IMG/VR virus record: IMGVR_UViG_3300033688_000038
Location: 29,341-93,340 of that record
Origin: a virus
Length of the DNA stretch: 64,000 nucleotides
Direction: 5' to 3' (one strand)
The notes beneath the pieces are model-generated. The model ran no database searches. It worked only from the letters and a program-made list of their open reading frames with translations, and was not told where the DNA came from. Position numbers and translations under genes: made by a program. Of this stretch, positions 14,599-62,786 are shown one piece after another; the first letter of the stretch is position 1; each line of letters starts with the position of its first letter.

Positions 14599-14672
14599 AA
14601 ATAATCTCCTTATTTTTCTATTAATATTATAGTGAAACTATCAATATAACAATCTACAATCAAAGAGCTTTG

Positions 14673-35277: not shown

Positions 35278-35292
35278 TATAAATACTCCTTA

Positions 35293-36408: not shown

Positions 36409-36498
36409 TTATAATTCTCCAATATAGAAAATAACTGGCAGTTTTAGAAATCAATCAATAAGTGCTATTAACACGGATACGTTATTTTTCTGTTTTAA

Positions 36499-36957: not shown

Positions 36958-36987
36958 TTTACCCCCTCATAAGTTTATATACAAATG

Positions 36988-37015
36988 TATACAAAATATT
37001 ACAAGAAAGCTCACA
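36988..37015 (-). promoter_or_regulatory. Putative late promoter TGTGAG-N15-TTGTATA
   Basis: Motif copy upstream of the 152-aa gene. Confidence 0.75.
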
Positions 37016-37027
37016 ATATGTACTAAA

Positions 37028-39466: not shown

Positions 39467-39467
39467 A

Positions 39468-46100: not shown

Positions 46101-48213
46101 TTTGTGATTCCATCTTAGGAGTCTCTAAGATATTAATGTCAAGTGTTCCATCAACAAGTGTTGACTTTTTATTACTACCACTTATTTTAATCTTTTTAAC
46201 TTGACCTTCAGTACCATCACCAATTACACCTACAATACTATTAGTAGTTTGATCTGGTACATTAATGGTTAAGATGCCCTTGTTGATACTTGTAGTTTCA
46301 TTCTTAGTAATTTTGATTTGAGAAATAGGGGTAACTGCTCCATCACCAATCCTAGCTTCTTGTCCTTTAATATATAAAGTTTTCTTATCAGTACCTTCAT
46401 ACACACTGTTAATAGCGTCTGCTTTTATAGTATTAATAGGTTTAACACTGCCATTACCAATCTTAGAGTCTAAAATCTTAGTATCTAATAAATTGATACT
46501 TAATCTACCACCTGAGATAGTAGAACCTGTTGTCTTACCTGTAAGCCTAATTTTGGTAACAGGAGTAGTTGTCCCAGTTCCAATCTGAGCAGAGATTTGA
46601 TCTTGTGAGATAACCTCAACTGTAGCTGCATTAGGTACAACATTTCCTTGTGTATCATAAGAGTCAGATACAGTAACACCTTTACCTTTAAATCTAATCT
46701 CACTAAGTCCAGTCTTAACATCAGTAGGAGTACTAATAGTTGTGGTTTTTGATATTTTCATTGTAGGTAGAGCTTTTACAGAAATAACTTTTGTATTATC
46801 AGCACCTACTTTAGATATTAAACCAAAACCAATAGAGTCAAATTCTAATTGATCTACCTCTGGGAATACAGAGCCAACAGTTTTATCATCAGATACAATT
46901 AACTTCTTAGTTATAGTACTAGTTTCTTTAAAATCAAGAGTTAATATTCCACCCTCAATTGAAGTTCCAGCACCATAAGCACCTTTGATAGCAATCTCAG
47001 TAATAGGTTGAGCAGAGTCTACACTATTGAAACCCCAACGATCACCTGAGCTTGTCCACTTCTCATCACCCGACCACTTCTTACGGAAAGTCTTAGTGTG
47101 TAATGGATTACCAGTAAGTGAATCACTGAAAGTTTGAATACTCTCTTGTACATCTTCTATAGCAGGATTCCATTTATTATTTCCAATCCAGTTAGCTGGT
47201 TCATCCCATGTGTTACGAGGAGAAGTACCATTACCAGTATCTGGGTCCCACTTATTATCACCAATCCATGTCTCAGGTTCATTCCACAGAGTTCTATCTT
47301 GAAGCCTGATATCGCTCCACTTATTACTACCAACCCATGTGTCAGGTTCACCCCACACTGATTTACCTAAATCTTCACCTTTGTAAATCCAGTTCTCTAG
47401 GTCAAACCAGTCTTCTCTGTCACTCCATAAAGCTATTTGTTCTTCTGGTACATCTTCTAGATTCTTACCAACAAGAGTAGCATTAAAATGAGGTATTTTA
47501 AGATTAAGTGTATTATCCGTGACACTAGTACTAGCTGTATTACCAGAGATAATCATATTATCATAATGTTCTGGCTTTAAAGCAGCACCAACTGTTACCA
47601 TTTTATTTGGGATATCAAGTGTTAATGTACCATCACCTATCCTACATAAATCAGAATCACCTGTAATCTCTAGTTTGTTTATATGACCAGAAGCACCTGT
47701 ACCATCTGGTTTCTTAATTTCTGTTGATAGTGATGTTTTAGCACTAACTTCAATAGTAAGATGAGTTGGTTCATCTTTATCTGGTTGTGTAATTGAAGCA
47801 CCTGGGAAGTTAAGAAAATCAGCTACATAATTCTTAGTTCCATTTCCAACGTGAATAGAACCGCCTCCACCTCCACCTCCTGTAAACATAGGTGAGAAGT
47901 CACACTCTGATTGAACACCAGAGTTATTATATAAAGTAAAAGTTTTAGTTGGACCATCTACATGGCACTGTACAAAAGACTTCTTTGTAATAATAGTATT
48001 CTTAGAGACTGTTGGTTCTAGATAATCTAACCTAGATTGAAACTTATTAATAATAGTTTTATTACTTTGTATTTCACTTGCCATTGACTTCATTTGTAAA
48101 TCTGAAGCAGCAGCTTTTATTTCAAGATCATTCACCTTTAAAATAGCAGGGTTTAACGAACCTGTACGTATGGTCTTTTTTAAATCACCATTATTAAAAA
48201 CAGGGATTGCCAT
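43114..48213 (-). CDS. Giant repeat-rich appendage (putative head-fibre) protein, 1699 aa
   Basis: Many ~40-45-aa beta modules ('A.IG.G...PI.KI.I....S.I..G.L.INI'); Trp-rich insert; N-terminal '[16 protein letters not shown]' resembles the shared anchor. Confidence 0.7.
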
Positions 48214-48231
48214 TGTTATACTCCTTAAACG

Positions 48232-48270
48232 AAAAAAGGGGGTAAGACTGAATTAACAATCTTACCCCCT
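48232..48270 (-). terminator. Strong rho-independent terminator ending the MCP array
   Basis: 11-bp stem AGGGGGTAAGA/TCTTACCCCCT followed by a T-tract on the - strand. Confidence 0.9.
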
Positions 48271-48291
48271 AATTGGAGTATAACCTAATGG

Positions 48292-48426
48292 TTATTTTTT
48301 AAGTTTTCCCTTCACCACAGGTGTTTTATCAACTGAAGGTCCAACTTCTACAACTGAAGGCTTAACCCTAACAGTCTTTGTAGCTAAAGTTGGATCTACT
48401 GTTGGTGGAGGGTTTACGCCTTTTTT
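48292..48426 (-). other. Putative programmed -1 frameshift (A AAA AAG) giving MCP-8 a 42-aa extension
   Basis: Heptamer at 48426-48420 just before the stop; the -1 frame reads GVNPPPTVDPTLATKTVRVKPSVVEVGPSVDKTPVVKGKLKK* to 48292 and ends 22 nt before the terminator stem. Confidence 0.7.
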
Positions 48427-49337
48427 ACTTCAAGTACACCTGAAGCGAAAGGGTTGCGGTGACGAAGACCTACTTCCATCTCGATCATCCACTTCTCATA
48501 GCTGCCATCTTTAGCTAGCTTAGTACGCTCTGGAGAACGTAGAACCATTTGAGTCCAATCAGATGGAGTGAAGAAGTAAATTGCATCTTCTGGCATCCAA
48601 CGGTTAGGCATTAATTTGTACTCTTGACCTAGTGGGTCTACTAGAGTAGAAACAAATACACTGAACTTAGGAGTGTTCTCAAAGATACGCTGACGAGAAC
48701 CATCACCTTTCTCTTGCAATGCAGAGAATAAAGATGCATGCTTAGGGTGGAACATGATAATGTTCGCATTAGAGCCTGCAAGGTAAAGGTTATAAGTCAA
48801 ACCAAAGATGTCAACTTCTGTAAGAGTTGCACCAGCAGTTTCTGTATGCACAACAGCACCAGTGTCTGTATCAGCAACAGCTTTAGCAGCAACTAATCCA
48901 CGGAAACCTGAAGTCTCACGAGCAACGCCGTTAGAGCCATCAACTTTAGCGATTTGAGTTAGGAATGCATGCTCTAGGTCACGCTTGATTTCTGTACCAG
49001 CTTTTTCCATTTGATATTGAAGCTCTTTACCACGACCGTAGTTTGCTAATGCGTTAGCTGTGTCAGATACTTTAACTACTTTACGTAGAATCTGTGTCAC
49101 GTTGTTATGTACAGTGGTCATCTTTGGTAAGCCGCCTTCAACAGCAGTTTCACCTTCAGCGATAGCATTCTTAGAAACTGGGTTCAGTGCATCTGACTGC
49201 CACTGGAACAAAGTATTCTGGATAGACTCTTTACCAGTCATTGAAGTGAAAGGAGTTTCAGCTGGAGATAGATTAGAAATCCAGTTAGCAAAACTTAATT
49301 TTTTACCGTTTAGGTCATAAGATTGTAGAGTAGCCAT
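48414..49337 (-). CDS. Major capsid protein paralogue 8: bare core, probably the main MCP, 307 aa
   Basis: SU10/phiEco32-type (DUF5309) MCP motifs 'SYDLNGKKLSFANWIS', 'TQILRKVVKVSDTA', 'LAKDGSYEKWMIEMEVGLRHRNP'; own promoter; AGAGGA SD. Confidence 0.92.
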   Translation of the reverse strand: MATLQSYDLNGKKLSFANWISNLSPAETPFTSMTGKESIQNTLFQWQSDALNPVSKNAIAEGETAVEGGLPKMTTVHNNVTQILRKVVKVSDTANALANYGRGKELQYQMEKAGTEIKRDLEHAFLTQIAKVDGSNGVARETSGFRGLVAAKAVADTDTGAVVHTETAGATLTEVDIFGLTYNLYLAGSNANIIMFHPKHASLFSALQEKGDGSRQRIFENTPKFSVFVSTLVDPLGQEYKLMPNRWMPEDAIYFFTPSDWTQMVLRSPERTKLAKDGSYEKWMIEMEVGLRHRNPFASGVLEVKKA

Positions 49338-49355
49338 ATTTAGTAATTCCTCTTT

Positions 49356-49399
49356 TTAAGAAGCTGAACAGCTTCGGATAAGTGAGATATGATTCTCAC
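49356..49399 (-). promoter_or_regulatory. Two hairpins in the 5' leader of MCP-8
   Basis: GTGAGA-atcata-TCTCAC and GAAGCTG-tt-CAGCTTC lie between the promoter and the SD. Confidence 0.45.
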
Positions 49400-49416
49400 A
49401 TTGGATACAAGATAAG

Positions 49417-49444
49417 TATACAACAATTTATGGAAAAACTCACA
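49417..49444 (-). promoter_or_regulatory. Putative late promoter TGTGAG-N15-TTGTATA dedicated to MCP-8
   Basis: Motif copy in the 139-nt gap between MCP-7 and MCP-8. Confidence 0.8.
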
Positions 49445-49476
49445 TAATATATAAAAATAAATTAATATATTATTTT

Positions 49477-50562
49477 TCACCCATAGGGTTTGGTTAAAAG
49501 TGGGATAGTGTTGTCATCAGCAGTTGATTTGATAACTAATACACCTGAAGAGAATGGATTTCTATGTCTAAGACCTACTTCCATTTCTACCATCCACTTT
49601 TCATATGAACCATCTTTAGCAAGCTTGGTGCGCTCTGGTGGTCTTAAAACCATCTGAGTCCAGTCATGAGGAGCAAAGAAGTAGATAACAGATTCAGGCA
49701 TCCATCGATTAGGGATCAACCGATACTCTTGTCCTAATGGATCTACTAGAGTAGAAACATAAGCAGATACCATTGGTGTGTTCTCAAACATACGGACACG
49801 TGTAGAAGCCTTCTCTTGTAATGCACTGAAAGTAGATGCCCATCTTGGATGGAACATAATAATATTAGCACTAGAACCAGCTAAATAAAGATTATAAGTC
49901 ATAGAGAAAATATCTGACTCTTTGACTTCATTACCAATAATATTAGCATCAGGTGATACAAGATTAGTAATACCAAAAACAGTACGAGCACCTGTATCAG
50001 GGTCTGACCAACCATCAATACCTCTACCTGTTTTAGGATCAGGATTTGTGACAGGGTCTGTTAACTTCTTAATACCCTTAAGAGTCATCTTCTTATCTAT
50101 TTCACTTAATGGACTAGCACATAGAGCTATAAAACCAGCAGTCTCTCTAGGATCTGCTCTAGTCTCAGCTTTAGAATCAGCATTGTTCATGAACGTCCAT
50201 TCTAAATCACGTTTAATCTCTTTACCTGCCTTTTCCATTTGATACTGTAATTCTTTACCTCTTCCATAGTTAGAAAGGGCATTGGCAGTATCTGAAATCT
50301 TAACAGTTTTACGTAAGATTTGTGTAATATTAGATCTGACTGTTGTAGTTTTTAAAGCAGAGTCCTTAGCAATATCACCTTCTATCATAGCATTCTTTAC
50401 AGCTTTGTTTAATGAATCATTCTGCCATTGGAATAGTGTTTGAGAGATAGCCTCTTTACCCGTCATAGAACTAAAAGGTGTCTCCTCAGGAGATAGATTA
50501 GAAATCCAATTAGCGAATGATAACTTCTTACCATTCAGATCATAAGATTGTAATGTTGACAT
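49477..50562 (-). CDS. MCP paralogue 7: ~25-aa internal insertion, no Ig domain, 361 aa
   Basis: All core motifs present; insertion 'SEIDKKMTLKGIKKLTDPVTNPDPKTGRGIDG'. Confidence 0.88.
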   Translation of the reverse strand: MSTLQSYDLNGKKLSFANWISNLSPEETPFSSMTGKEAISQTLFQWQNDSLNKAVKNAMIEGDIAKDSALKTTTVRSNITQILRKTVKISDTANALSNYGRGKELQYQMEKAGKEIKRDLEWTFMNNADSKAETRADPRETAGFIALCASPLSEIDKKMTLKGIKKLTDPVTNPDPKTGRGIDGWSDPDTGARTVFGITNLVSPDANIIGNEVKESDIFSMTYNLYLAGSSANIIMFHPRWASTFSALQEKASTRVRMFENTPMVSAYVSTLVDPLGQEYRLIPNRWMPESVIYFFAPHDWTQMVLRPPERTKLAKDGSYEKWMVEMEVGLRHRNPFSSGVLVIKSTADDNTIPLLTKPYG

Positions 50563-50581
50563 ATAATATTATCCTCAGGAG

Positions 50582-50597
50582 AGGGGGCGAACCCCCT
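50582..50597 (-). other. Intercistronic UUCG-loop hairpin between MCP-6 and MCP-7
   Basis: AGGGGG-TTCG-CCCCCT with no U-tract. Confidence 0.7.
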
Positions 50598-50605
50598 TTC
50601 AGTTA

Positions 50606-51949
50606 TTAAACCACAGAAACAGTTACAGTACCAGTTCTTGCTAACTCAACACCACTTTTATCTTGGTATGAGATGTAGTAATCACCACTATGTTGTGATG
50701 TAGCACCATGAGTAATCACAAAACCAGTAGCTCTTACAGTATCACCCTTCTCAGTCCAACGACCAGCTTCATGTCCATTCATAACTAACACTGTCATATC
50801 AGTAGCAATTATAGTGTGGGTTGCTTTGACAGCAGCAGCTGGATCTGGAATAGTTGCTTTTGTTTTTCTATCAAAGCTAATCTGACTTCCACGCTTAACA
50901 TCTACATGGAAATGTTCTTTCTTTTTAATATCCATATTAACAACAGCAGAAGTGCCAGGTTTAATATAATCAAAAGTAGCCTTCTCCCAAGCATTATCAT
51001 AAACTGGATCATCAGAACTGTCAATGTCTAGAACACCTGCTGCAAATGGATGGCGTAGACGTAGACCTACTTCCATTTCAATCATCCATTTTTCATATGA
51101 ACCATCTTTAGCAAGCTTGGTTCTTTCAGGTGGACGTAAAACCATTTGAGTCCAGTCAGAAGGATTGAAGAAGAATACATGACCTTCTGGCATCCATCGA
51201 TTAGGAATCAATTTATATTCTTGACCTAAAGGATCTACTAATGTAGAAACATAAACAGAAATCTTAGGAGTGTTGTGGAACATACGCTCTCTTGTACCAT
51301 CTGATTTCTCTTGTAGTGATGAGAATAAAGATGCATGCTTAGGATGGAACATGATGATACTAGCTTTAGAGCCAGATAAGTATAGATTATATGTTAAATC
51401 AAAAATATCATCTTCTGTAAGAGTACCAGTTGTTTTCACACTCTTGTGAACCATAGCACCAGTATCAATATCAGCAGTACCAATTGGTGAAACAAGACCT
51501 AAGAAACCAGCAGTTTCACGTGGGATTCGAGTACCCACTGTGTCTGTGTGTTCTTGTTGTGAGTTACCATTATGTAGGAATGCCCACTCAATATCACGTT
51601 TAATCTCTTTACCAGCTTTTTCCATCTGGTATTGTAATTCCTTACCCCTGCCATAGTTAGCAAGCGCGTTAGCAGTATCAGAGACCTTAACAGTTTTACG
51701 AAGAATCTGAGTTACGTTAGAACGTACTGTAGTTGAACGTAATGAAGCATCAATTGCCTCATCACCCTCTTTGACAGCATTTCTACCCGCTTTAATTAGT
51801 GAGTCATTCTGCCATTGAAACAAAGTCTGTGATACAGTTTCTTTACCAGTCATTGATGTGAAAGGTGTTTCTTCTGGTGATAAATTAGAAATCCAGTTAG
51901 CAAAACTTAGTTTTTTACCATTTAGATCATAAGATTGTAATGTTGCCAT
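50606..51949 (-). CDS. MCP paralogue 6 with C-terminal Ig-like domain, 447 aa
   Basis: Core motifs plus 'VMNG...QHSGDYYI...TVTVSV'. Confidence 0.88.
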   Translation of the reverse strand: MATLQSYDLNGKKLSFANWISNLSPEETPFTSMTGKETVSQTLFQWQNDSLIKAGRNAVKEGDEAIDASLRSTTVRSNVTQILRKTVKVSDTANALANYGRGKELQYQMEKAGKEIKRDIEWAFLHNGNSQQEHTDTVGTRIPRETAGFLGLVSPIGTADIDTGAMVHKSVKTTGTLTEDDIFDLTYNLYLSGSKASIIMFHPKHASLFSSLQEKSDGTRERMFHNTPKISVYVSTLVDPLGQEYKLIPNRWMPEGHVFFFNPSDWTQMVLRPPERTKLAKDGSYEKWMIEMEVGLRLRHPFAAGVLDIDSSDDPVYDNAWEKATFDYIKPGTSAVVNMDIKKKEHFHVDVKRGSQISFDRKTKATIPDPAAAVKATHTIIATDMTVLVMNGHEAGRWTEKGDTVRATGFVITHGATSQHSGDYYISYQDKSGVELARTGTVTVSVV

Positions 51950-51973
51950 AAATTATTTTCCTCTTGTAAAGTA

Positions 51974-51991
51974 GTGGGGATTTCTCCCCAC
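51974..51991 (-). other. Intercistronic GAAA-loop hairpin (possible leaky terminator) between MCP-5 and MCP-6
   Basis: GTGGGGA-GAAA-TCCCCAC followed by TACTTT. Confidence 0.7.
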
Positions 51992-51998
51992 ATTTGTC

Positions 51999-53330
51999 TT
52001 ACTTAACTGTGATGTTAATAACAGCTGATTTAGCTAAAGCCTTACCATCTTTATCCATATACATTAGGTAGTAATCACCATTGTGTTTTGATGCTGTGTC
52101 GTATGAATACTTGAACTCTAAATCAGAAGTACCAATACCAGTCCAACGTCCACTCTCTTTTCCATTGAAGTAGATACAAGTGATGTCAGTAGCTGCAGGT
52201 GTAGCGGTCTTAGCTGAATTTGATGGGATAGTTGATTTTGTTTTTCTCTTAAAGATAAGTTGAGTACCAGGTTTAACATCAATGTGTTGTGGGTTTACCT
52301 CTGCTTTTAAATCTAAAGTAGATACATTTGTATCTCCAGATTTAACATATTTAAGCTCCATTGTCTCCCAAGCTTTTGCACCCATATCAGGGTTATCACC
52401 ATGAGCTACGTCAAGAACACCAGCTGCGAATGGATGACGTAAACGCAATCCAACTTCTGTCTCGATCATCCACTTCTCGTAAGAACCATCTTTAGCAAGT
52501 TTAGTACGCATTGGAGCACGAAGAACCATCTGAGTCCAGTCGCTAGGGTTCAAGAAGAAGATAGAACCTTCAGGCATCCAACGGTTTGGAATCAACTTAA
52601 ACTCTTGCCCTAATGGGTCAACTAGTGTAGAAACATAAACAGAAAGCTTAGGTGTGTTCTCAAACATACGAACACGAGTAGGAGATTTCTCTTGTAGAGC
52701 ACTGAAAGCAGCAGCCCACTTAGGGTGGAACATGATAATGTTTGCACTTGAACCTGCTAGGTATAAATTGTATGTTAGGTCAAAAATATCTGACTCAGTT
52801 AATTTATTATCAGTTACTACTTTTTTATGTACAACAGCACCTGTATCTGGATCAGTGTTATCAATGTGAGCCACAAGACCTAAGAAGCCAGCAGTTTCAC
52901 GAGGTTGACGAACACCACTTTGATCTGTGTATTCAGCACGAGAGGCTTCATTATTCAAGAACGCCCATTCTAGGTCACGCTTTAGTTCAGAACCTGCCTT
53001 CTCCATTTGGTACTGAAGCTCTTTGCCTCGACCATAGTTAGCAAGAGCGTTAGCGGTATCAGATACCTTAACAGTTTTACGTAGGATTTGTGTAAGGTTA
53101 GAACGTACAGTAGTTGCTCGTAGTGAACCATCTGTAGCTTCGATACCCTCAACGATTGCGTTCTTACCAGCTTTAGATAGCGCATCATTCTGCCATTGGA
53201 ATAGTGTTTGGGTGATTGACTCTTTGCCAGTCATTGAAGTGAAAGGTGTCTCCTCAGGAGATAGATTAGAAATCCAGTTAGCAAAACTTAGTTTTTTACC
53301 ATTTAGATCATAAGATTGTAGAGTAGCCAT
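51999..53330 (-). CDS. MCP paralogue 5 with C-terminal Ig-like domain, 443 aa
   Basis: Core motifs plus 'YFNG...KHNGDYYL...INITVK'. Confidence 0.88.
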   Translation of the reverse strand: MATLQSYDLNGKKLSFANWISNLSPEETPFTSMTGKESITQTLFQWQNDALSKAGKNAIVEGIEATDGSLRATTVRSNLTQILRKTVKVSDTANALANYGRGKELQYQMEKAGSELKRDLEWAFLNNEASRAEYTDQSGVRQPRETAGFLGLVAHIDNTDPDTGAVVHKKVVTDNKLTESDIFDLTYNLYLAGSSANIIMFHPKWAAAFSALQEKSPTRVRMFENTPKLSVYVSTLVDPLGQEFKLIPNRWMPEGSIFFLNPSDWTQMVLRAPMRTKLAKDGSYEKWMIETEVGLRLRHPFAAGVLDVAHGDNPDMGAKAWETMELKYVKSGDTNVSTLDLKAEVNPQHIDVKPGTQLIFKRKTKSTIPSNSAKTATPAATDITCIYFNGKESGRWTGIGTSDLEFKYSYDTASKHNGDYYLMYMDKDGKALAKSAVINITVK

Positions 53331-53345
53331 GTTTTATATCTCCTA

Positions 53346-54728
53346 TTAACCTTTCATATGAAAGTATACAGATTTTGATTGTTTTTTATATGTTGGATTC
53401 GCTGAATCAGTTAAGATTAACAAATAGTTTCCAACATTCTTTGATGAAGCCACACTTGTGATGACAAACTCAGTATCCTTGTCACTAGTGATTGTTTCTC
53501 TTGCTAAGTAGACTCCATCCTTATAAAGGGAGACCACATTCCAAGTTGCAGACTCAGCAGTGTCAGCTTTACCTGATGGAGCTGGTGGATCTGGTTTTGG
53601 TGGTGGTGGTGGATCTTCCTTTTTATACTTCTTAATTTTGAAAGATAACTTATCTCCAGTAACATAAGGAACATCAATACCATATTCTCCAAGACCACCA
53701 AGCATATCAATCTCAGTGGAATCTGTTAAAGATCTACCCTCGATGATTAAAGATGTTACATCAACATCCTTTTTGATATGAACATTATCAGTGGTATCTA
53801 GGATACCTGCAGCAAAAGGGTTTGATAATCTTAAACCAAGCTCAGCTTCGATCATCCATTTTTCATATGAACCATCTTTAGCAAGCTTAACGCGAGATGG
53901 TGGTCTTAATAACATTTGTGTGAAATCACTAGCCTTGAAGAAGAAAATCTTCTCTTCTGGCATCCAACGATTAACAACCAATTTATGTGTTGCACCAAAC
54001 ATATCAACTAATGTAGAAACATATACTGATAATTTAGGTGTATTCTCAAAGATTCTTCTTCGTGAAGCTTCTTCAGGTTTCCCACCATCAGCTGGTCTTT
54101 CTTGTAGTGCTGAGAAATATGATGCCCATTTAGGGTGGAACATAATAATATCTGTCTCAGAACCAGCAATGTAAAGATTATGAATAATATTGAAAATATC
54201 CATATCCTCAAAAACGCCATCAGCTTTACCAGTACTTTGATGTACAATGGCTCCAGTTTCAAAATCAACAGCACCAAGAGGTGCCACCAACCCAGCAAAA
54301 CCAGCAGACATCCTTCCATGCTCATCTGTTTCATCAGATGCTAGTTCATTGTTCAAAAGAGCCCATTCGATATCCCGTTTAAGTTCTTCTGCTGCATTCT
54401 CTAGCTGGTATTTAACTTCCTCTGTTCTACCATAGTTTTCAGTAGCATTAGCAGTATCAGAGATACTAATAACCTTACGGAGGATTTGAGTCATGTTAGA
54501 TTTAGTATCAGTGTGACCAACATTACCAGACACAGCATCATCACCTTCAGAGTTAACATTACGACCTGCTACTGCAAGGTTATCAGTCTGCCACTGAAAG
54601 ATAGTTTGATTTGTAGCCTCTTTTCCAGTCATAGATGAAAAAGGTGTATCTATTGGAGCTATTGTTGAGATCCAATTGGCAAAACTTAACTTCTTGCCAT
54701 TCAGATCATAAGATTGTAAAGTAGACAT
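53346..54728 (-). CDS. MCP paralogue 4 with C-terminal Ig-like domain and Pro-rich loop, 460 aa
   Basis: Core motifs plus 'DPPPPPKPDPPAP', 'LYKDG' and 'NVGNYLL'. Confidence 0.88.
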   Translation of the reverse strand: MSTLQSYDLNGKKLSFANWISTIAPIDTPFSSMTGKEATNQTIFQWQTDNLAVAGRNVNSEGDDAVSGNVGHTDTKSNMTQILRKVISISDTANATENYGRTEEVKYQLENAAEELKRDIEWALLNNELASDETDEHGRMSAGFAGLVAPLGAVDFETGAIVHQSTGKADGVFEDMDIFNIIHNLYIAGSETDIIMFHPKWASYFSALQERPADGGKPEEASRRRIFENTPKLSVYVSTLVDMFGATHKLVVNRWMPEEKIFFFKASDFTQMLLRPPSRVKLAKDGSYEKWMIEAELGLRLSNPFAAGILDTTDNVHIKKDVDVTSLIIEGRSLTDSTEIDMLGGLGEYGIDVPYVTGDKLSFKIKKYKKEDPPPPPKPDPPAPSGKADTAESATWNVVSLYKDGVYLARETITSDKDTEFVITSVASSKNVGNYLLILTDSANPTYKKQSKSVYFHMKG

Positions 54729-54736
54729 ACTTTCTC

Positions 54737-56164
54737 CTATGATTTATATCTTAAGTGCATACCATCTGTTAGTTCAACTAACGCACCATCTGCACTAGAA
54801 CCTACAAGAACATAAGTACCTGCATCAGAAGGAGAAGCCTTCTCAGAAATAATAAATTCCTCAGAGGCAGCACCATCAACAGATGTTAATTTATGGTTCA
54901 TAATAATCTGACCATCTTTGATAAGTTTAAAAGAAGCCACTACTATGTTAGCAGGAAGTTCAGAATTCTTCTTAGATTGAACTTTTAGTTTAAGAGGTTT
55001 ACCAGGGATTAAATTAAACTCAGAATCCTTATTAAAATCACCACTATGTAGCACACTCTGAGAAATCTTTTTAACTTTAAAGATTGGCTTCTGTGCAGGG
55101 GTAAGGGGTTTAGATTTAATAGCATCATCAGAGCCAATCCAAAGCACACCAGAGCCATAAGGGTTTGCGTGTTGTAATCCAACCTCTGCTTCAATCATCC
55201 ACTTCTCTGAAGAACCTTTCTTAGATAGTTGAGTTCGTTTAGGTTGACGAAGAACCCTTTGTGTCCAATCTTTAGGATCAAAGAAGTAAATAAGATGAGT
55301 GGGCATCCAACGATTAGGGATCAACATGTAAGTTTGACCTAATGGGTCTGTTACTTCATTCACAAAAAGAGAAACCTTATCTGTGTTCTCAAAAAGTCTT
55401 GTTCTTTTACTAAGTGTAGGAGTCTCTGGAGCACCACCAGAATATATAACATTTGGTGATTCTTGTAGAGAACTAAAAAACTTAGCTTGACTTGGATGAT
55501 ACATAATAGTGTTAGCATCAGAACCTGACAAATATAAATTATAAGTCATTGTCCAGAGTTTACTTTCTGTAAGTTCCTCACTTACCCAAATATCTGGGCT
55601 AAAATTAGGTGAGTGATCTGCCATAGTAGTATCTCTTGTAAAGAAGTTCACAACAGCACCAGTTTCAGGGCAAGGTGTATTAGCAGGGGCTACCAAAGGA
55701 TAGAACCCAGCTGTTAATCTAACACCCTCTTCCACAGGAGCACCAGCAGAATCAAGAGATGATTCATCATGAGAGCCTGCTTTATTATTCAGGAATGCCC
55801 ATTCAATATCACGCATTAACTCTGTACCAGCTTTAGTCATTTGATACTCAAGTTCTTTACCTCTACCATAATTAGATAGGGAGTTAGATGTATCAGAAAC
55901 CTTAATCACTTTACGAAGGATTTGAGTTACATTACTCTGATCAAGTGTAACGTAAGCATCATCCTCAACAGCAGATGAACCCTCTAGTACAGCATTATCT
56001 TCTACTCTATCTAGATTATCAGTTTGCCACTGAAAGGTGATTTGATCTGTTGGTACTTTTTTAGTCATTGAAGTAAAAGGAGTCTCCTCTGGGGAGATAT
56101 TACTAATCCAATTAGCAAATGATAACTCTTTGCCGTTCAGATCATAAGAATGAATTGTAGCCAT
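54737..56164 (-). CDS. MCP paralogue 3 (most divergent core) with Ig-like domain, 475 aa
   Basis: Variant motifs 'IHSYDLNGKELSF' and 'LSKKGSSEKWMIEAEVGLQHANPYG'; three loop insertions; 'IKDG...SDAGTYVL'. Confidence 0.85.
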   Translation of the reverse strand: MATIHSYDLNGKELSFANWISNISPEETPFTSMTKKVPTDQITFQWQTDNLDRVEDNAVLEGSSAVEDDAYVTLDQSNVTQILRKVIKVSDTSNSLSNYGRGKELEYQMTKAGTELMRDIEWAFLNNKAGSHDESSLDSAGAPVEEGVRLTAGFYPLVAPANTPCPETGAVVNFFTRDTTMADHSPNFSPDIWVSEELTESKLWTMTYNLYLSGSDANTIMYHPSQAKFFSSLQESPNVIYSGGAPETPTLSKRTRLFENTDKVSLFVNEVTDPLGQTYMLIPNRWMPTHLIYFFDPKDWTQRVLRQPKRTQLSKKGSSEKWMIEAEVGLQHANPYGSGVLWIGSDDAIKSKPLTPAQKPIFKVKKISQSVLHSGDFNKDSEFNLIPGKPLKLKVQSKKNSELPANIVVASFKLIKDGQIIMNHKLTSVDGAASEEFIISEKASPSDAGTYVLVGSSADGALVELTDGMHLRYKS

Positions 56165-56166
56165 TA

Positions 56167-57576
56167 TTACTCCTTAGCTTTCTTTGCTCGTGGTTTACGT
56201 TGAGGTTTTACTTCAACAACTTCAGTTTGGATTTCATCAGCCTTTGTATAAGGTTGAGCATCAACTTTAAGTCCATAAGATTCTGTCTGTTCTACATACT
56301 TGTAGTTAGTTCCAACGGCAGTCTTCTTCAAACCAATAGCATAATAAATACCAGCATCTTTTGTATCAACAGATTCTGAGATTACATGAGTGAATGTATC
56401 ACCTGCTGTTGTAGATACAGGTAATTTAGATGCGTACAAAATATCATCTTTATATAAGTCAATATAATCCACTTTTGCAACTGGTGCTTTTAATGTAATG
56501 ACAAACTTAGAACCAGCTGTTAGTTTACCAGTGTTCTCTGTATAAGAAGCTGGTTCAATCTCATCAGTCCCAGCACTACCTGTTTTATATACTACATCGG
56601 TAATATTTGCAACAATAGGTGCAGCAGGTTTTATCATTAATAGACCTGAAGAGTAAGGATTAACATGTCGTAAACCAACCTCCATTTCTACCATCCACTT
56701 CTCGTAAGAACCATCTTTAGCAAGTTGTGTTCTCTGTGGTTCTCTTAATAAAACTTGAGACCAGTTATCAGGATTAAAGATATAAACAGCATCATCTGGC
56801 ATCCAACGATTGGGGATTAGCTTAAACTCTTGTCCCAGTTGATCTACTAATGTAGAAACATATACTGATAGTTTAGGTGTGTTATTAAACATACGTTGTC
56901 TATTTGTAACTGGGTTTCCATCTAAACCTTTATACGTACCTTGACTCTCTTGTAAAGAACTAAAGAATGATGCCCATTTAGGATGGTACATAATAGTATC
57001 AGCCTCAGAGCCTGCTGTATATAAAGAGAATAGTAAATGGAAGATATCTAACTCACTAATTGAATTAGGATTAGCAGTCTCCATAGTCGTAATAGCACCT
57101 GTCTCAGGACAAGGCATATTCAGTGGAGCAACTAATCCGCGATAACCAGCAGTCTTTCGAGGGGTTGTTCCATCAACATCTTGCTCAGCACTCTTATTAG
57201 TTAATAGCGCATACTCAAGGTCACGTTTAATCTCTTTACCAGCTTTCTCAAGTTGATATTTAACCTCTTTATCTCTACCGTAGGTATCTAGAGCATTTGC
57301 AGTATCAGAGATCTTAACTACTTTACGTAAGATTTGAACTGTGTTACTTTTTGTACTAGTTGATCGTAGTGGGACAGATTGAGCTCTATCACCTTCACCA
57401 TGAACATTACGACCAGCCTGTTGCAATGAATCGGTTTGCCATTGGAAAACTACCTGGTTTGTTTTATCCTTTCTTGTCATTGAAGAGAAAGGACAATCCA
57501 TTGGAGATAGGTTACTAATCCAATTAGCAAATGATAATTTCTTACCATTTAAATCATAAGATCTTAAAACAGACAT
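56167..57576 (-). CDS. MCP paralogue 2 with Ig-like domain and basic tail, 469 aa
   Basis: Core motifs plus 'LYKDD...KDAGIYYA' and tail 'VVEVKPQRKPRAKKAKE'. Confidence 0.88.
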   Translation of the reverse strand: MSVLRSYDLNGKKLSFANWISNLSPMDCPFSSMTRKDKTNQVVFQWQTDSLQQAGRNVHGEGDRAQSVPLRSTSTKSNTVQILRKVVKISDTANALDTYGRDKEVKYQLEKAGKEIKRDLEYALLTNKSAEQDVDGTTPRKTAGYRGLVAPLNMPCPETGAITTMETANPNSISELDIFHLLFSLYTAGSEADTIMYHPKWASFFSSLQESQGTYKGLDGNPVTNRQRMFNNTPKLSVYVSTLVDQLGQEFKLIPNRWMPDDAVYIFNPDNWSQVLLREPQRTQLAKDGSYEKWMVEMEVGLRHVNPYSSGLLMIKPAAPIVANITDVVYKTGSAGTDEIEPASYTENTGKLTAGSKFVITLKAPVAKVDYIDLYKDDILYASKLPVSTTAGDTFTHVISESVDTKDAGIYYAIGLKKTAVGTNYKYVEQTESYGLKVDAQPYTKADEIQTEVVEVKPQRKPRAKKAKE

Positions 57577-57585
57577 AACTTCCCC

Positions 57586-58902
57586 TTACAAATCGATAGC
57601 GACAGTTCCACCAATATTTAGTGTGATACCTGGAGTGACATCTTTATTAACAGAAGTAATAGCAGATACGGAGTATAATCCAGCATGTTCAGCAGTAGCT
57701 ACATCTGTAATCTTAATCTCAAGAGCTGCATCTTTACCACCTGCAATATACTCTTGTGTAATTAAAGGTACACCATTTTTATTAATAACAATTGTCACAG
57801 GCTTACCAGCAGTAGCATCTGCTTTAAGTTTCAACTTAACGATTAGTGGTTTACCAGGTTTATGAGTAGCAATACCATCTCCAGCTTTACCAAAAATAAG
57901 TGACTTAGCAGTATCACCTGTAACATCTTCAACAGTATGTAAAGTTGGGCTATCATCCACTGCAGTACCTACACCATTAAAGATTTTGTAGAAATCAGCA
58001 CCTTTCTTAGTTGTAAGAACACCTGCTGCGAATGGATGGCGTAGACGTAAACCTACTTCCATTTCAATCATCCACTTCTCATATGAACCATCTTTAGCAA
58101 GTTGTACACGAGTTGGTTCACGAAGTACCATTTGTGTAAAATCTTCTGGACGGTAGAAGAATACCTTATCAGTTGGCATCCAACGATTTGGTAGTAATTT
58201 ATATTCTTGACCTAAAGGATCAACCAACGTCGATACATGTAGGTTAACTTTATCTGTATCTTCAAACATACGAATACGAGTTGCTGATTCTTGTAACATA
58301 CTAAAACGATAAGCCCAGTTAGGGTGATACATGATAATATTAGCTTTAGAACCACTTAAGTATAACTGGTAAGTCATATCAAAAAGTTCAGCTTCTGTGA
58401 ATTCTCCACCTGCTAGTTCTTTATAAACAACAGCACCTGTCTCAGGGCAACTAGAGTTTAGTGGAGCAACAAGTCCTGAAAAGCCAGCAGTCTCACGTGG
58501 GTCTGTAACTTTAGCAGTGCTTTGATTCAAGAATGTCCACTCTAAATCACGCTTAATCTCTTTACCTGCTTTTTCCATCTGATAAGCTAATTCCTTACCA
58601 CGACCATAGTTGTCGGTAGCATTTGCAGTGTCTGATACTTTAACTACTTTACGTAAGATTTGAGTTACGTTAGTACGAACAGTTGTAGTATTCATTACAC
58701 CTTCAGTAGCCTTTGTACCTTCTAATGCTGCATTCTTTTTAGCCTTAGTCAGTGAGTCGTTTTGCCATTGGAATAAGCACTGCTCAACAGATTCTTTTGC
58801 TGTCATTGAGACAAACGGACAATCTTGAGGAGAGATAGTACTAATCCAATTAGCAAATGATAACTTCTTACCATTAAGTTCATAAGATTTTAATGTAGCC
58901 AT
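57586..58902 (-). CDS. MCP paralogue 1 with Ig-like domain, 438 aa (start MATLKSY)
   Basis: AAGGAAG SD before 58902; the start aligns with the other seven copies; 'NKNG...EHAGLYSV'. Confidence 0.88.
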   Translation of the reverse strand: MATLKSYELNGKKLSFANWISTISPQDCPFVSMTAKESVEQCLFQWQNDSLTKAKKNAALEGTKATEGVMNTTTVRTNVTQILRKVVKVSDTANATDNYGRGKELAYQMEKAGKEIKRDLEWTFLNQSTAKVTDPRETAGFSGLVAPLNSSCPETGAVVYKELAGGEFTEAELFDMTYQLYLSGSKANIIMYHPNWAYRFSMLQESATRIRMFEDTDKVNLHVSTLVDPLGQEYKLLPNRWMPTDKVFFYRPEDFTQMVLREPTRVQLAKDGSYEKWMIEMEVGLRLRHPFAAGVLTTKKGADFYKIFNGVGTAVDDSPTLHTVEDVTGDTAKSLIFGKAGDGIATHKPGKPLIVKLKLKADATAGKPVTIVINKNGVPLITQEYIAGGKDAALEIKITDVATAEHAGLYSVSAITSVNKDVTPGITLNIGGTVAIDL

Positions 58903-59241
58903 ATAATATGTCTTCCTTGTATTATGCCAATCACGAAGATTGGTAATCGACAATAATCTTAATAAATTGGACTACAATGGAAGGCCAAACTTAATAATTA
59001 TTGACTTGATCTGTATAGATAAAAATAAATCTAGTATACAGGTAATGTTGTTATAAGTTTTATATAGTAGGGGTTTGTAACTAATGAGGTTTTATTCGAT
59101 GATATTTGAATTCTAATCTATACGTGAGTGTATAGTATTAGATAATATAATAGAACAGACTGATACAAATACAACTGTATAGAATGAACATTATCTTTTT
59201 AAAGTTTAGAGATTGCTTACAGGGAGTAAGGTTCTCGAATA

Positions 59242-59317
59242 AAGGACTACTGGCGTAGCCCTTGTTCAGGTTTGTTGCGTGGGGCATCTTCGGGAGTTTA
59301 TAATGCCCTGCCCCACG
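59242..59317 (-). ncRNA. Candidate structured RNA element between the scaffold gene and the MCP array
   Basis: GC-rich island with a perfect 9-bp CGTGGGGCA/TGCCCCACG stem and an AAGGGCTAC-gcca-GTAGTCCTT hairpin. Confidence 0.35.
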
Positions 59318-59365
59318 TCTTATATTTCTTTTAAGTTGCACTCAAGGTAGCAATCACCTTATTTA

Positions 59366-60400
59366 TTAATCTTCTAGCATATCAAACATGTTACCAAGAT
59401 CTTGCTGATCAAAGCTACCAGTTTCCATACGCTTCTTCAGTACAGCCTTCTTGGTGTTACCTGCAGGTTTACTTGACTTAGCTACTGCTTTGACTACTTT
59501 CTTAGGTGAGCCAATCTTCTTAATCTTAGCTTTAACAACTTGTTTACCTTGGTCTAATTGTTTAGCTTTATACAAAGCTTTAAAAATACCAGGATCTACA
59601 CAAGTAGTAATGAAATCTTCTGTCATACCAATCGAGTGACCATACTTCATAAGTTCTGTATACAACTCTTTATTCCAACCAGGGATATCTTTAGAAAGAA
59701 TAGTATTTGATTCAGCGGCTTGACGTTGTTGAGTAGCTGCTTTTTCAGCACCCTCAGCTTCTTTAATCTTAACCATCTCAGAGTTAATCTCTTTTAAGCG
59801 AGACTTATAACGATCAAGGAATTCACGGTTCTCAACATAAGCACTAGGATCTTCTTTAGCCAGGCTAACAAAATCAAAATCTGAATAATCTTCTACTACT
59901 TTCTGAGCTTCCAATTGAGCTAACTCTAATAGTGATTTGATATCTTTAGATGTACCTTCAAATGTAGCACGCTCTTCTTCGAATGCAGCACGCTCTTCAG
60001 CAAGAGCAGCAGCAGAACGATAACCTTTGATTGCTTCATTAAGCTTAACCATAGAGCCATCAGGAAGTGTTACATCATACTCTTCAAAGTCAACTTCATC
60101 ACCATCTTCATCAGTAATTTCTGCATCACCATCTTCGTACTCTGCATCATCTTCATCTTCTTCAAACTCTTCTGTCTCTTCATCAGTCTCTTCTTCAGAT
60201 TCTACATCATCTTCATCTTCATCAATTGTATCAAAGTCAAAATCACTTTCATCAATACCTAAATCAGATAAATCATTATCATCAATATCTTCAATTGCTG
60301 CTGCTTCTGGAGTCACGATAGTATCTTCACTATCTAACTGACCAAAAATATCACCCATATCTTCAATGTACATGTCATTCATTTCAATATTCATACTCAT
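59366..60400 (-). CDS. Capsid scaffolding protein, 344 aa
   Basis: Very acidic N-terminus, 'YDVTLPDG..VKLNEAIKGY' motif, coiled coil, basic C-terminal stretch; lies between portal and MCP. Confidence 0.85.
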   Translation of the reverse strand: MSMNIEMNDMYIEDMGDIFGQLDSEDTIVTPEAAAIEDIDDNDLSDLGIDESDFDFDTIDEDEDDVESEEETDEETEEFEEDEDDAEYEDGDAEITDEDGDEVDFEEYDVTLPDGSMVKLNEAIKGYRSAAALAEERAAFEEERATFEGTSKDIKSLLELAQLEAQKVVEDYSDFDFVSLAKEDPSAYVENREFLDRYKSRLKEINSEMVKIKEAEGAEKAATQQRQAAESNTILSKDIPGWNKELYTELMKYGHSIGMTEDFITTCVDPGIFKALYKAKQLDQGKQVVKAKIKKIGSPKKVVKAVAKSSKPAGNTKKAVLKKRMETGSFDQQDLGNMFDMLED

Positions 60401-60406
60401 AAGTTG

Positions 60407-60628
60407 TTACTCCTCAAAATCGTAGTTATTTAAATTCTCCTGAAGCTTTTCATTTAGTCGTTTTAATGCTTTAGTTAGCATATAGAGTTCCTCACGTTTG
60501 GTCATTTCATCAGGGAGAGTCTCTACGATTTCAAGAGCTATATCTTGGTGTATCTCTCGGAGGAGGTCTTCTAAAAGACCACCCTCCATTAATTGTTTTA
60601 CTTTGCTAAACCGTTGGATATCATTCAT
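60407..60628 (-). CDS. Small helical protein between portal and scaffold, 73 aa
   Basis: Coding-like helical sequence ('KREELYMLTKAL') at a position where related podoviruses carry a small gene. Confidence 0.7.
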   Translation of the reverse strand: MNDIQRFSKVKQLMEGGLLEDLLREIHQDIALEIVETLPDEMTKREELYMLTKALKRLNEKLQENLNNYDFEE

Positions 60629-60644
60629 TTAATCAACCCCACTA

Positions 60645-62786
60645 TTAGCTTCGACCTAAACCCACAGGCCTGTTGTGTTTATTTTCTAGTTGAGCCTCAA
60701 TCATAATCTCTTGACGTTTAAGTTCAAGTTTATCTCTTTCTAATTGAAGCTTCATTTGTTCAATCTGTAACTTACGCTCTTCAACACCCATCTTATCAGC
60801 AGCCTCATCTTGTTTAGATAAAGACTCCTCTTTCCTCATAGCGAAATCATCAGCAGCTTTAACTTGTTCAAACTGTAGCTTTTGCTGAGCTTCTGTAATA
60901 TCAGAAAGGATTTTTTGTGTTGCTGCTTGTGTCTGCTTAATTGTCTCAGCAGCTGTTTGTAATGTAAGCTCTTGTAATGGATCAGGTTGTGGAGGAGGTA
61001 AATCCTCTAGAGGTGTTAGATAATTCTGTACATCAAAAATACCCATAGCTTCAAAGATTTGAGTAGCCATGTAGTATGAATTCTGAGGTTGGATAAACAT
61101 ACCTACCTGCGGAGACGATGCTGCAAGTTGCAATGCACCAGTTAGCATCTGAGCCCTTTCACGACGTTCATTATTTCCAACTGCAACTGCTACGATCATC
61201 TTATCACGTCTAGGTAGCATGTTAGGGAAAATAGTCATCGGACCTTTTACTGTTTCAACTAAAATAGGGTCTTTAGCATTCTCGCGAATAATACGATAAA
61301 TACCTAACATCAGACGTTTCATACCTTCCTCTGCGATGTTACGTGCTATCATTCTCATTCTGTTTTGTGCTGCTGACATCATTGTGTTTACTGTAGCAAA
61401 AGAGTTATCATTCTTTAATACATCGTTATTTAAACCCTGCCCTAATCTCGTGACACCAGTACGTTGTTCCTTTTTCTGTTCCACGTATTCTAGTAGGGTA
61501 ATATTACCTTGTGGTAAAGCATGATAAGGGAGCAGAGTAACTGCGCCTGGAGTTGTGATTTCTACTACACCACCTGGACGGCCTTCCAAGAGTGAGCGTT
61601 TATCATAACCACCTTTTAATCCTGTGTAACGACCAAAGTTTGCATTCATTGTATTATCAATAATACCACGAACTAGCATGGTGTTAAGGTTTTGAATATC
61701 TTTAGTAATATCTGTTACTGATTCTCCGAAAATGTTACCAGGTACAGGGAAGGGTGTAATCGTTTCAAATGGCATTTCATTAACACGGCTCACTTCCAAA
61801 ATCTGGTCATAGACAGTAAATACTTGTAGCATCTCTGTAGTTCCGCTTAATGCGGACGTCTTGATATAGTTCTCATACAGCCATACTCGATCTACCATAT
61901 CATCACCAACAGAAAAATTGTCACTAGGATTATACATTTGTGCTTCAACTGCACGGGCACTAGATGCTTGTCCACCATATAAATCAAGATTATCAGACCT
62001 TAAACCTTTAACAGTTTCTTCATCGAAACCCATTTCAATAAGTTCTTGTTTACTCTTTCTTACACGATGAGCAATGTAGTTAGCTTCCTGGATGCAAGTT
62101 GCAAGTGGATCAATGATAATCTGCTCGAAAGGTACATATTCAACCTTTACACCTTCAGTAGAGCGTTTGTATGTAACAGAACCTTCAAGAAGTTCTTGTT
62201 CTTCATACTTATCTAAATCCTTGCACACCTCATCATCAATAGTAACAGAGATTAATTCTCCATCAATTTGTGATAAGTACAACTCTAAATCATCTCTAGA
62301 GATTTCATCAAAAGTCTCAGTAAAGACTTCATCACCAACTCTCCAGTATCTTTTGAACCATGAATTACCAACAATGCAACTCTCTTTGAAAGCATCATGT
62401 AATGCACGGTATCCTCTATTATCTGTCAACAAAGCTTTATTAACAAGCTTAGTTGCTGCCTCTGCCGCAATAGCATCTTCTGTAGTGCGCGGCATAAACC
62501 TTACTGCATTCTCACCTGAAGTGAAAACACCAATCAATTCTTGTAGAGTACCATTAACAGCTTCCCATACAGAACGGTCAATCCATTTAGAAGAACCTTT
62601 TGTAATTGGCTCAGGGAGTCTACCGTAGTAGTAATCCCAAGACTCAACTGTACGAGTGGCTAACTCACCTTCGTGGTGATAAAAAGCTAACTCTTTGTGA
62701 CCATTCAACTGAACAGTCAAGTCGCTTAGTTGGTCTTCGGTCATAACAACATCACCATAAATAATTAATTCTTGTTCCATGACCAA
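60645..62786 (-). CDS. Portal protein, 713 aa
   Basis: Follows TerL; P22/SU10-like portal features ('WDYYYG', 'VEYVPFEQIIIDP', 'MPF..ITP.P.P....GES..D...DIQ', C-terminal coiled-coil barrel). Confidence 0.92.
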   Translation of the reverse strand: MVMEQELIIYGDVVMTEDQLSDLTVQLNGHKELAFYHHEGELATRTVESWDYYYGRLPEPITKGSSKWIDRSVWEAVNGTLQELIGVFTSGENAVRFMPRTTEDAIAAEAATKLVNKALLTDNRGYRALHDAFKESCIVGNSWFKRYWRVGDEVFTETFDEISRDDLELYLSQIDGELISVTIDDEVCKDLDKYEEQELLEGSVTYKRSTEGVKVEYVPFEQIIIDPLATCIQEANYIAHRVRKSKQELIEMGFDEETVKGLRSDNLDLYGGQASSARAVEAQMYNPSDNFSVGDDMVDRVWLYENYIKTSALSGTTEMLQVFTVYDQILEVSRVNEMPFETITPFPVPGNIFGESVTDITKDIQNLNTMLVRGIIDNTMNANFGRYTGLKGGYDKRSLLEGRPGGVVEITTPGAVTLLPYHALPQGNITLLEYVEQKKEQRTGVTRLGQGLNNDVLKNDNSFATVNTMMSAAQNRMRMIARNIAEEGMKRLMLGIYRIIRENAKDPILVETVKGPMTIFPNMLPRRDKMIVAVAVGNNERRERAQMLTGALQLAASSPQVGMFIQPQNSYYMATQIFEAMGIFDVQNYLTPLEDLPPPQPDPLQELTLQTAAETIKQTQAATQKILSDITEAQQKLQFEQVKAADDFAMRKEESLSKQDEAADKMGVEERKLQIEQMKLQLERDKLELKRQEIMIEAQLENKHNRPVGLGRS

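Follow-up and report, generated by a model that had tools for sequence, protein, structure and literature searches.

Eight tandem major capsid protein genes in an uncultured phiEco32/7-11-like phage

How many kinds of major capsid protein (MCP) can one tailed phage put to use? The textbook picture of tailed-phage heads is of shells made from one major protein, and a lineage that keeps six to eight HK97-fold subunit genes challenges it. The case considered here is a tandem gene array in the 124,877-bp virus record IMGVR_UViG_3300033688_000038, of which a stretch of 64,000 nucleotides (nt), hereafter the window, supplies the coordinates used throughout. Eight consecutive open reading frames (ORFs) with zero internal stops occupy positions 48414-58902 on the minus strand. 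They are eight co-oriented, functional HK97-fold capsid subunit genes of an uncultured phage that is phiEco32/7-11-like (Grimontviridae-like), and we name them M1-M8 in transcription order. The SU10-type MCP, a long form of it bearing an immunoglobulin (Ig) domain, and the presence of two to four copies in some isolates are known elements; our literature search found no description of HK97-fold MCP gene arrays of this size.

Eight capsid protein genes and their integrity

The eight genes, with the E-values (E) of their matches to the SU10_MCP family (PF17236) and lengths in amino acids (aa), are as follows.

57586-58902, minus strand: M1, 438 aa; HK97 core at about aa 1-301, C-terminal Ig-like domain at about aa 302-438; PF17236 E 2.3e-75
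56167-57576, minus strand: M2, 469 aa; core, Ig-like domain and a basic tail with last residues KPQRKPRAKKAKE; PF17236 E 5.7e-69
54737-56164, minus strand: M3, 475 aa; loop insertions, Ig-like domain at aa 344-475; PF17236 E 3.4e-65
53346-54728, minus strand: M4, 460 aa; core and Ig-like domain with a proline-rich insert; PF17236 E 3.1e-65
51999-53330, minus strand: M5, 443 aa; core and Ig-like domain at aa 311-443; PF17236 E 1.5e-80
50606-51949, minus strand: M6, 447 aa; sister of M5, Ig-like domain; PF17236 E 5.4e-81
49477-50562, minus strand: M7, 361 aa; no Ig domain, core inserts and a 15-aa tail; PF17236 E 2.7e-76
48414-49337, minus strand: M8, 307 aa; bare canonical MCP; PF17236 E 3.1e-78

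A first-pass annotation, made from the sequence alone, had described eight tandem, intact MCP paralogues with copies 1-5 tightly packed, and had proposed a profile search on each ORF. That search returned SU10_MCP for all eight (E 3e-65 to 5e-81; 221-273 bits at a cut-off of 24.1), with alignments spanning about positions 5-290 of the 292-position profile in every copy, and together with the coordinates, the shared motifs and the absence of internal stops it bears out the description. All eight copies also match PHROG 1328 "major head protein", and the SU10_MCP matches in the whole 124,877-bp genome are exactly M1-M8. The start motif M-x-T/V-L/I-x-S-Y-D/E-L-N-G-K-K/E-L-S-F-A-N-W-I-S and the core through KWM.E.E.GL align in each of them. 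The packing stands as well: the intergenic gaps from M1 to M8 measure 9, 2, 8, 15, 49, 43 and 139 nt, and a Shine-Dalgarno sequence is present ahead of each copy. M1, whose ATG at 58902 is preceded by AAGGAAG, likely starts there, and the listed TTG at 58953 is unlikely, because of this Shine-Dalgarno sequence, the alignment with the other copies and the same start called in a sister strain.

Pairwise core identity among the copies is 50-80% at the amino acid level, the core of M3 being the most divergent of the eight; the N-arm and core motifs are near-invariant, and the C-terminal domains are 15-41% identical. A full-length structure model was made for one copy, M5, with AlphaFold2 (AF2; predicted local distance difference test score, pLDDT, 77). 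In a fold search its core matched SU10 gp9 (7z48) at E 1.3e-33 with 52-53% identity, and the matches ran from 7z48, 7z45 and 7z46 (E 1e-33 to 1e-27) to HK97, lambda and other capsids.

The array could in principle consist of redundant or decaying duplicates, or be an assembly chimera of related phages. The genome does come from a metagenome-type record without an isolate, one that IMG/VR labels "provirus". However, a second strain (L033), 94-99% identical per protein, has the same eight intact genes in the same order, in two independent and mutually identical ENA assemblies (a megahit contig and a scaffold from four samples). Six further ENA contigs, of SPAdes-type and megahit origin, encode an M8 protein identical to that of the window and keep the order M5-M6-M7-M8-1699-aa protein. 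Altogether, about ten ENA samples and two strains yielded the array independently, under megahit as well as SPAdes-type assembly; ERZ27297908, ERZ28619169 and ERZ4749895 are among the ENA assemblies of samples with this phage. The copies are only 60-80% identical at the nucleotide level and share no long exact repeats, which leaves an assembler without sequence to collapse or chain. The array is no assembly artefact, and the chimera that the first-pass annotation had named as a possible refutation is contradicted by these independent, identical assemblies of divergent copies.

Decay fares no better. Window genes were compared with their second-strain orthologues by the Nei-Gojobori method, giving whole-gene ratios of non-synonymous to synonymous divergence (dN/dS, omega) of 0.04-0.23 at synonymous divergences (dS) of 0.05-0.18. 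Core omega was 0-0.10 in all eight copies, with 195 synonymous and 34 non-synonymous differences in sum, and C-terminal domain omega was 0.16-0.53. Core and C-terminal values were 0 and 0.19 for M1, 0.05 and 0.25 for M2, and 0.03 and 0.28 for M4; the cores of M5 and M7 gave 0.01 and 0.04, the C-terminal domain of M6 had the highest value (0.53), and M8 had the lowest dS of the eight. All eight copies are under purifying selection and none is drifting, contrary to the neutral drift that had been put forward as a second possible refutation. With every core omega at or below 0.10 and all eight frames intact in both strains, a reading as redundant duplicates or a chimera is so improbable that it hardly counts among the explanations.

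Between paralogues the proportion of synonymous differences (pS) is 0.58-0.72 for every pair, M5-M6 included, so synonymous sites are saturated. The duplications are therefore old, and dN/dS between paralogues is unreliable because of this saturation. Sliding windows across the paralogues revealed no low-pS stretch of the kind left by recent gene conversion, and the conservation of the N-arm is therefore due to selection at the protein level rather than to gene conversion.

C-terminal domains and relatives of the array

The copies differ mainly at their C-termini. M1-M6 each carry a different, fast-evolving C-terminal domain of 130-150 aa, and M7 and M8 have none. M7 has instead core inserts of 32 and 9 aa (about 40 in total) and a 15-aa tail that ends PYG, and the end of M8 coincides in alignment with the canonical "...VK(K)A" terminus of single-copy relatives. 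The first-pass annotation had recognized the common core and the variation in ORF length, and had seen neither the domains of M1-M6 nor the M7 insert.

By predicted fold and by motif, the domains of M1-M6 are Ig-like, a resemblance at these two levels only. Aligned with 16 homologous tails from other phages, they share the motifs "l-KDG-v" and "DAGxY", which we take to be typical of I-set Ig domains; M4 shows the KDG and GxY motifs. In the M5 model the C-terminal domain is all-beta (pLDDT about 85), and an AF2 model of M3 aa 344-475 (pLDDT 72.5) matches LILRA5, LAIR-1 and LILRB4 at E about 4e-4, with target-normalised template modelling (TM) scores of 0.36 and up to 0.76. Structural neighbours of the C-terminal domain in the ESM Atlas are I-set and Big proteins; the Atlas feature search gave no usable hit beyond such neighbours, and a viral fold library searched with the M3 domain gave weak generic Ig-like matches only. 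Comparison with hhalign of a domain profile of the window clade against the I-set domain of the Privateer frameshift extension (see below) gave a probability of 68% (E 4.7e-5). The domains of M5 and M6 are 39-41% identical, and their tails match by blastp at E 1.5e-30. M2 (56167-56230) has a conserved basic end, K(T)RKPRAKK, preceded by an acidic/valine-rich linker, and shares it with copy 4 of L035, copy 2 of L037 and copy 1 of L004, all of them arrays or copies from related phages. That the copies differ mainly in the C-terminal Ig-like domain points to surface display over lattice position as the use of the array.

Among isolates, the closest are Grimontviridae and allies, whose MCPs are 62-72% identical to M8 (70-72% for those of GAP52, 7-11 and Vp_R1). 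The phiEco32/SU10-like phages had been credited by the first-pass annotation with one MCP gene, which is incomplete on two counts. One is a second product from the same gene: kuraviruses and Privateer use a -1 frameshift on the MCP gene, which in SU10, phiEco32 and Privateer lies at its end, to make a short product and a long, Ig-bearing one. Both are present in virions, and mass spectrometry detected there the SU10 "9+10" protein and the Privateer minor capsid protein (PMC4281155, PMC7881722). Downstream of the MCP gene the -1 frame is open for 109-195 codons in Privateer, LAh_8, the uncultured L010 and L012, and phiEco32. By Pfam match, the frameshift extensions and the long copies of relatives encode I-set and/or Big_2 domains.

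The other is the number of genes, namely two in Salmonella phage 7-11 and its relatives, four in Aeromonas phage APT65, and six or seven in uncultured relatives. Copy 2 of 7-11 is an MCP with Big_2, and APT65 has three short copies and one long, whose extension was not identified. No -1 Ig extension follows the short MCP copy in the multi-copy phages 7-11, L005 and APT65. Between the tail of 7-11 copy 2 and a frameshift-encoded extension there is 45% identity (E 7e-15), a direct link of the frameshift device to the long-paralogue device. Among uncultured phages, L035 (a Logan contig) encodes seven copies of 753, 472, 463, 468, 435, 364 and 352 aa, L036 (an ENA contig) six, and L037 at least three before the contig ends; some copies in these arrays have multi-Ig tails of 450-470 aa. 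In L036, copies five and six are separated by two unrelated genes, for a SASA-like protein of 841 aa and a protein of 345 aa (13640-17195 of that contig).

Like the window, 7-11 and Cronobacter phage GAP52 (two MCP genes each) and APT65 have tandem SU10_MCP paralogues after the scaffold gene, one of them long. In these isolates, however, the short copies come first and a single copy is long, whereas six of the eight copies in the window are long and the short one is last. Their expansions also stand apart phylogenetically. In a tree of the cores, the copies of the window and of the other large arrays form one clade (support 98/91) whose sister is the single-copy Vibrio phage vB_VpaP_SJSY21, and the APT65/L013 and 7-11-type expansions are separate events. 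The only supported group inside the clade is M5+M6+M7 (100/98). Approximately unbiased (AU) tests rejected neither a single clade of all eight window copies (p 0.48) nor one of the basic-tail copies (p 0.30). A tree of this kind had been proposed as a means of dating the duplications; it resolves the clade and the separate expansions, but neither the order within the clade nor the dates.

The tails give some indication of age. The M1 tail matches L035 copy 5 (best) and L036 copy 3, and the M2 tail matches those L004, L035 and L037 copies in which the basic end is also present. From this partial tail orthology it follows that some of the array is older than the divergence of these phages and some of it is lineage-specific.

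A similarly high number of capsid paralogues in one virus is found in the prasinoviruses (Nucleocytoviricota), which have eight MCP paralogues of unexplored function (PMC5371798). These are double jelly-roll proteins of eukaryotic giant viruses, without a tight tandem operon and without evolutionary relationship to the present array.

Expression signals and a possible mosaic shell

The signals in and around the array are listed below.

48227-48270, minus strand: intrinsic terminator after M8, a 14-bp GC-rich stem then a U-run (-25.3 kcal/mol, z -5.5)
48426-48420, minus strand: slippery heptamer A_AAA_AAG two codons before the M8 stop, M8 ending GTA-AAA-AAG-GCG-TAA
49415-49444, minus strand: promoter-like motif TGTGAG-N16-TTGTATAC, located in the AT-rich spacer (139 nt) that immediately precedes M8
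50579-50600, minus strand: hairpin in the M6-M7 spacer, similar to the next, not significant (z -0.75)
51974-51991, minus strand: small GC hairpin in the M5-M6 spacer (-13.4 kcal/mol, z -2.9)
59278-59317, minus strand: hairpin without U-tract just after the scaffold gene (-19.2 kcal/mol, z -4.2)

Genome-wide there are 13 occurrences of the bipartite motif TGTGAG-N15-17-TTGTATA, where 0.3 would be expected (at most 2 in 200 shuffles), and 12 of the 13 lie on the same strand as the neighbouring genes. Its window sites are 12210, 20178, 32647, 33091, 37015 and 49444 (all on the minus strand), with seven elsewhere in the genome. The site before M8 is the sole one within the array, none being found between the scaffold gene and M7 in full form, and strain L033 has conserved it in the same position. 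The motif is species-specific and absent from the other arrays and related phages; it probably represents the promoters used by an RNA polymerase that the phage encodes or redirects. The 8-mer TGTATACT alone was not enriched (3 vs. 5.1 expected), and a sigma-70 promoter scan was uninformative (41 sites vs. 40 expected). TAATGTATA reportedly occurs in the phage-sigma promoters of phiEco32. The non-coding gap of 463 nt between the scaffold gene and M1 (58903-59365, minus strand) begins with the hairpin listed above and contains an extended AT-rich section in which a partial promoter-like element, CTGTATACT, is found at 59033-59040. A search of 48000-60700 against Rfam returned nothing credible.

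With a promoter motif of its own upstream and the region's only strong intrinsic terminator downstream, M8 looks like a self-contained promoter-gene-terminator unit. Its tree branch (0.24) is among the shorter ones; M5 (0.15) and M6 (0.19) have shorter branches still, and those of M3 and M4 are much longer. From the promoter motif, the terminator, the short branch and the low dS we infer that M8 would be the most abundant copy and the principal shell subunit.

The slippery heptamer is found only on M8 among the eight copies, at the place where Privateer, phiEco32 and SU10 have their G_GGA_AAG frameshift site. The -1 frame beyond it (48292-48426, minus strand) is open for 42 codons, in strain L033 too, and ends just ahead of the terminator in the lysine-rich ...VVKGKLKK; the extension encodes no Ig domain. 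The site may be a remnant of an ancestral frameshift device, or may still yield a minor form of 348 aa. The long forms M1-M6, by comparison, are continuous in-frame ORFs and not -1 frameshift products. The window thus shares with phiEco32, SU10 and Privateer the PF17236 family, the order portal-scaffold-MCP, the theme of a bare core beside a core-Ig fusion, and a slippery heptamer at the equivalent place. It differs in that those phages obtain two products from one gene by way of G_GGA_AAG, whereas here there are six in-frame fusion genes with distinct Ig-like domains, an insert variant (M7), and an M8 whose -1 extension lacks an Ig domain.

In T7, the capsid gene for 10A and 10B lies between a promoter and a terminator, and a -1 frameshift gives a longer minor protein whose extra C-terminus is on the surface (cited in PMC7881722). 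A promoter motif, a terminator and a near-end slippery site also surround M8, here as features of the sequence. However, T7 gene 10 belongs to another MCP family and is a single gene, with no Ig domain or paralogue array.

Taken together, the explanation that we favour, and consider somewhat better than evenly probable, is a mosaic shell in which M8 makes up the bulk and M1-M7 are co-assembled minor subunits displaying varied Ig-like domains, the array having replaced the frameshift device. M8 would be made as the principal shell protein from its own promoter and terminator, and transcription of M1-M7 would start upstream, each copy using its own Shine-Dalgarno site for translation. M1-M7 would co-assemble with M8 on the single scaffold and portal, as is proposed because the N-arm and the core contact elements are kept. 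M1-M6 would each place a different Ig-like domain on the outside of a prolate head, and M7 its loop insert. The capsid might then carry a set of weakly adhesive domains that most likely bind glycans or surfaces, a role that has been proposed for T4 Hoc and other phage Ig-like domains. As to origin, the array would replace and multiply an older -1 frameshift that made an MCP-Ig fusion from a fraction of the MCP: duplication and in-frame fusion could have produced dedicated long-form genes, with the M8 slippery site left as a remnant or as the source of an active minor form. A mosaic capsid of several subunit types had already been suggested by the first-pass annotation. Eight functional paralogues under selection make it the most reasonable consequence; the mosaic itself, and with it the co-assembly, the outward display of Ig-like domains, the bulk role of M8 and an adhesive, probably glycan-related function, we infer.

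Several observations weigh against this mosaic shell. Between the strains, the -1 extension of M8 differs by three non-synonymous substitutions and one synonymous one, and there is no significant RNA structure downstream of the slippery site (z -1.4). The abundance proposed for M8 is read from sequence features of one uncultured phage; six of the eight genes are long and come first in the operon, so that "minor" is an assumption as a label for their products. Pfam searched with the six C-terminal domains alone gave no Ig family even at E 5, and the fold matches of the domain are modest (E about 4e-4, TM 0.5-0.75). The cryo-electron microscopy (cryo-EM) map of SU10 has no density for the Ig-like part, and such domains can be sparse, flexible or lost (PMC9509320).

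The paralogues might instead be position-specific, serving as pentons, cap hexamers, tube hexamers or a portal-proximal ring, with the Ig-like domains secondary. In T4 the HK97-fold paralogues gp23 and gp24 share one prolate head in this way, on the face and at the vertex, and Ig-like domains are displayed by Hoc, a separate protein; the window differs in fusing its Ig-like domains to the shell subunits and in having eight paralogues. Each core is individually conserved, as position-specific use would need, and there are indels in the core loops: M2, M3 and M4 have inserts of 8-15 aa after about residue 212 of M5, and M3 and M7 carry inserts around residues 155-195. The genome also exceeds that of SU10 in size (125 kb vs. 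77 kb), which makes a larger head probable. In SU10 the head comprises two classes of pentamer and six of hexamer, which differ in the N-arm, E-loop and annular loop, but all eight capsomer classes are made from a single protein (PMC9509320). Related arrays, moreover, have six, seven or eight copies in differing combinations, and by far the greatest differences between copies lie in the appended domains and not in the cores. Because SU10 uses one protein and copy number varies among arrays, we regard a position-specific use as unlikely, if still worth considering. A stronger form of the same idea, a division of labour for a very long prolate head in which each paralogue is specific to one capsomer environment and the Ig-like domains mark or stabilise positions, seems to us quite improbable; if true, it would be a genetically encoded multi-component HK97 lattice far beyond that of T4 gp23/gp24.

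Alternatively, the phage could build condition-dependent capsids, using a subset of copies per infection, host or condition, for antigenic or adhesive variation or for escape from capsid sensing. The internal promoter motif before M8 and the hairpins in the M5-M6 and M6-M7 spacers could partition expression in this manner. However, the gaps of 2-15 nt among M1-M5, each copy with its own Shine-Dalgarno sequence, imply co-transcription and co-translation, and neither invertible segments nor meaningful inverted repeats were found. Evasion of host defences that sense the MCP, an idea of the first-pass annotation, is unsupported: extra variants are extra targets for a capsid sensor, and the cores common to all copies are the conserved part. 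We give this alternative very little credence.

The array offers a natural system for studying heterogeneous subunits in one lattice, the setting of stoichiometry through promoters, coupling and frameshifting, and the ligands of capsid-borne Ig-like domains. It would also mark an evolutionary route from a programmed frameshift through gene duplication to a diversified domain panel, traceable across a phage family. A shell that tolerates several C-terminal domains would be a natural template for multivalent phage display, and the array would be experimentally tractable through heterologous co-expression.

Neighbouring genes and genome setting

The gene order is terminase, portal, a small ORF, scaffold, M1-M8, a 1699-aa protein and tail(-fibre) genes. 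Upstream of the array, the scaffold and portal genes are each single.

59366-60400, minus strand: scaffolding protein gene (phrog_9013, E 6e-93)
60645-62786, minus strand: portal protein gene (PF23899 SU10_portal, E 2e-159; phrog_1216)

The 1699-aa protein directly after the array (43114-48213, minus strand) has no Pfam or PHROG match. A Trp-rich repeat region lies near residues 255-400 (W..EP.TW.G.NKW), and units of about 45 aa with GDG..PI recur many times in the protein, which could be a fibre of the head or of the tail. Vaguely similar short Trp-rich tails are present on the short MCP copies of L036.

The record resembles a free lytic phage genome despite its "provirus" label, with an arm of small plus-strand genes, a structural arm on the minus strand, even GC content and no obvious host genes. 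No terminal repeat was found in the 124,877-bp record, and no transfer RNA (tRNA) genes in the window. Contigs as long as 172-189 kb encode proteins of this phage as well. A host search by a scan of genome contigs returned only tiny contaminant contigs in actinobacterial assemblies, and a literature search for the sample accessions gave no match.

The tail region (33109-43102, minus strand) includes a collagen-repeat fibre at 41435-43102. Two phrog_143 proteins of this region have a sub-threshold match resembling SASA esterases, and one of them, of 827 aa (37028-39511), has an additional Laminin_G_3 lectin domain, which suggests that these tail-region proteins are glycan-targeting receptor-binding proteins. 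The collagen-like fibre and the SASA-like and Laminin_G_3 matches fit a glycan-rich habitat, though they are no proof of one. Further along the minus-strand structural arm lie giant ORFs of 2965, 1814 and 1864 aa, at 1015-9912, 14673-20117 and 25029-30623, respectively.

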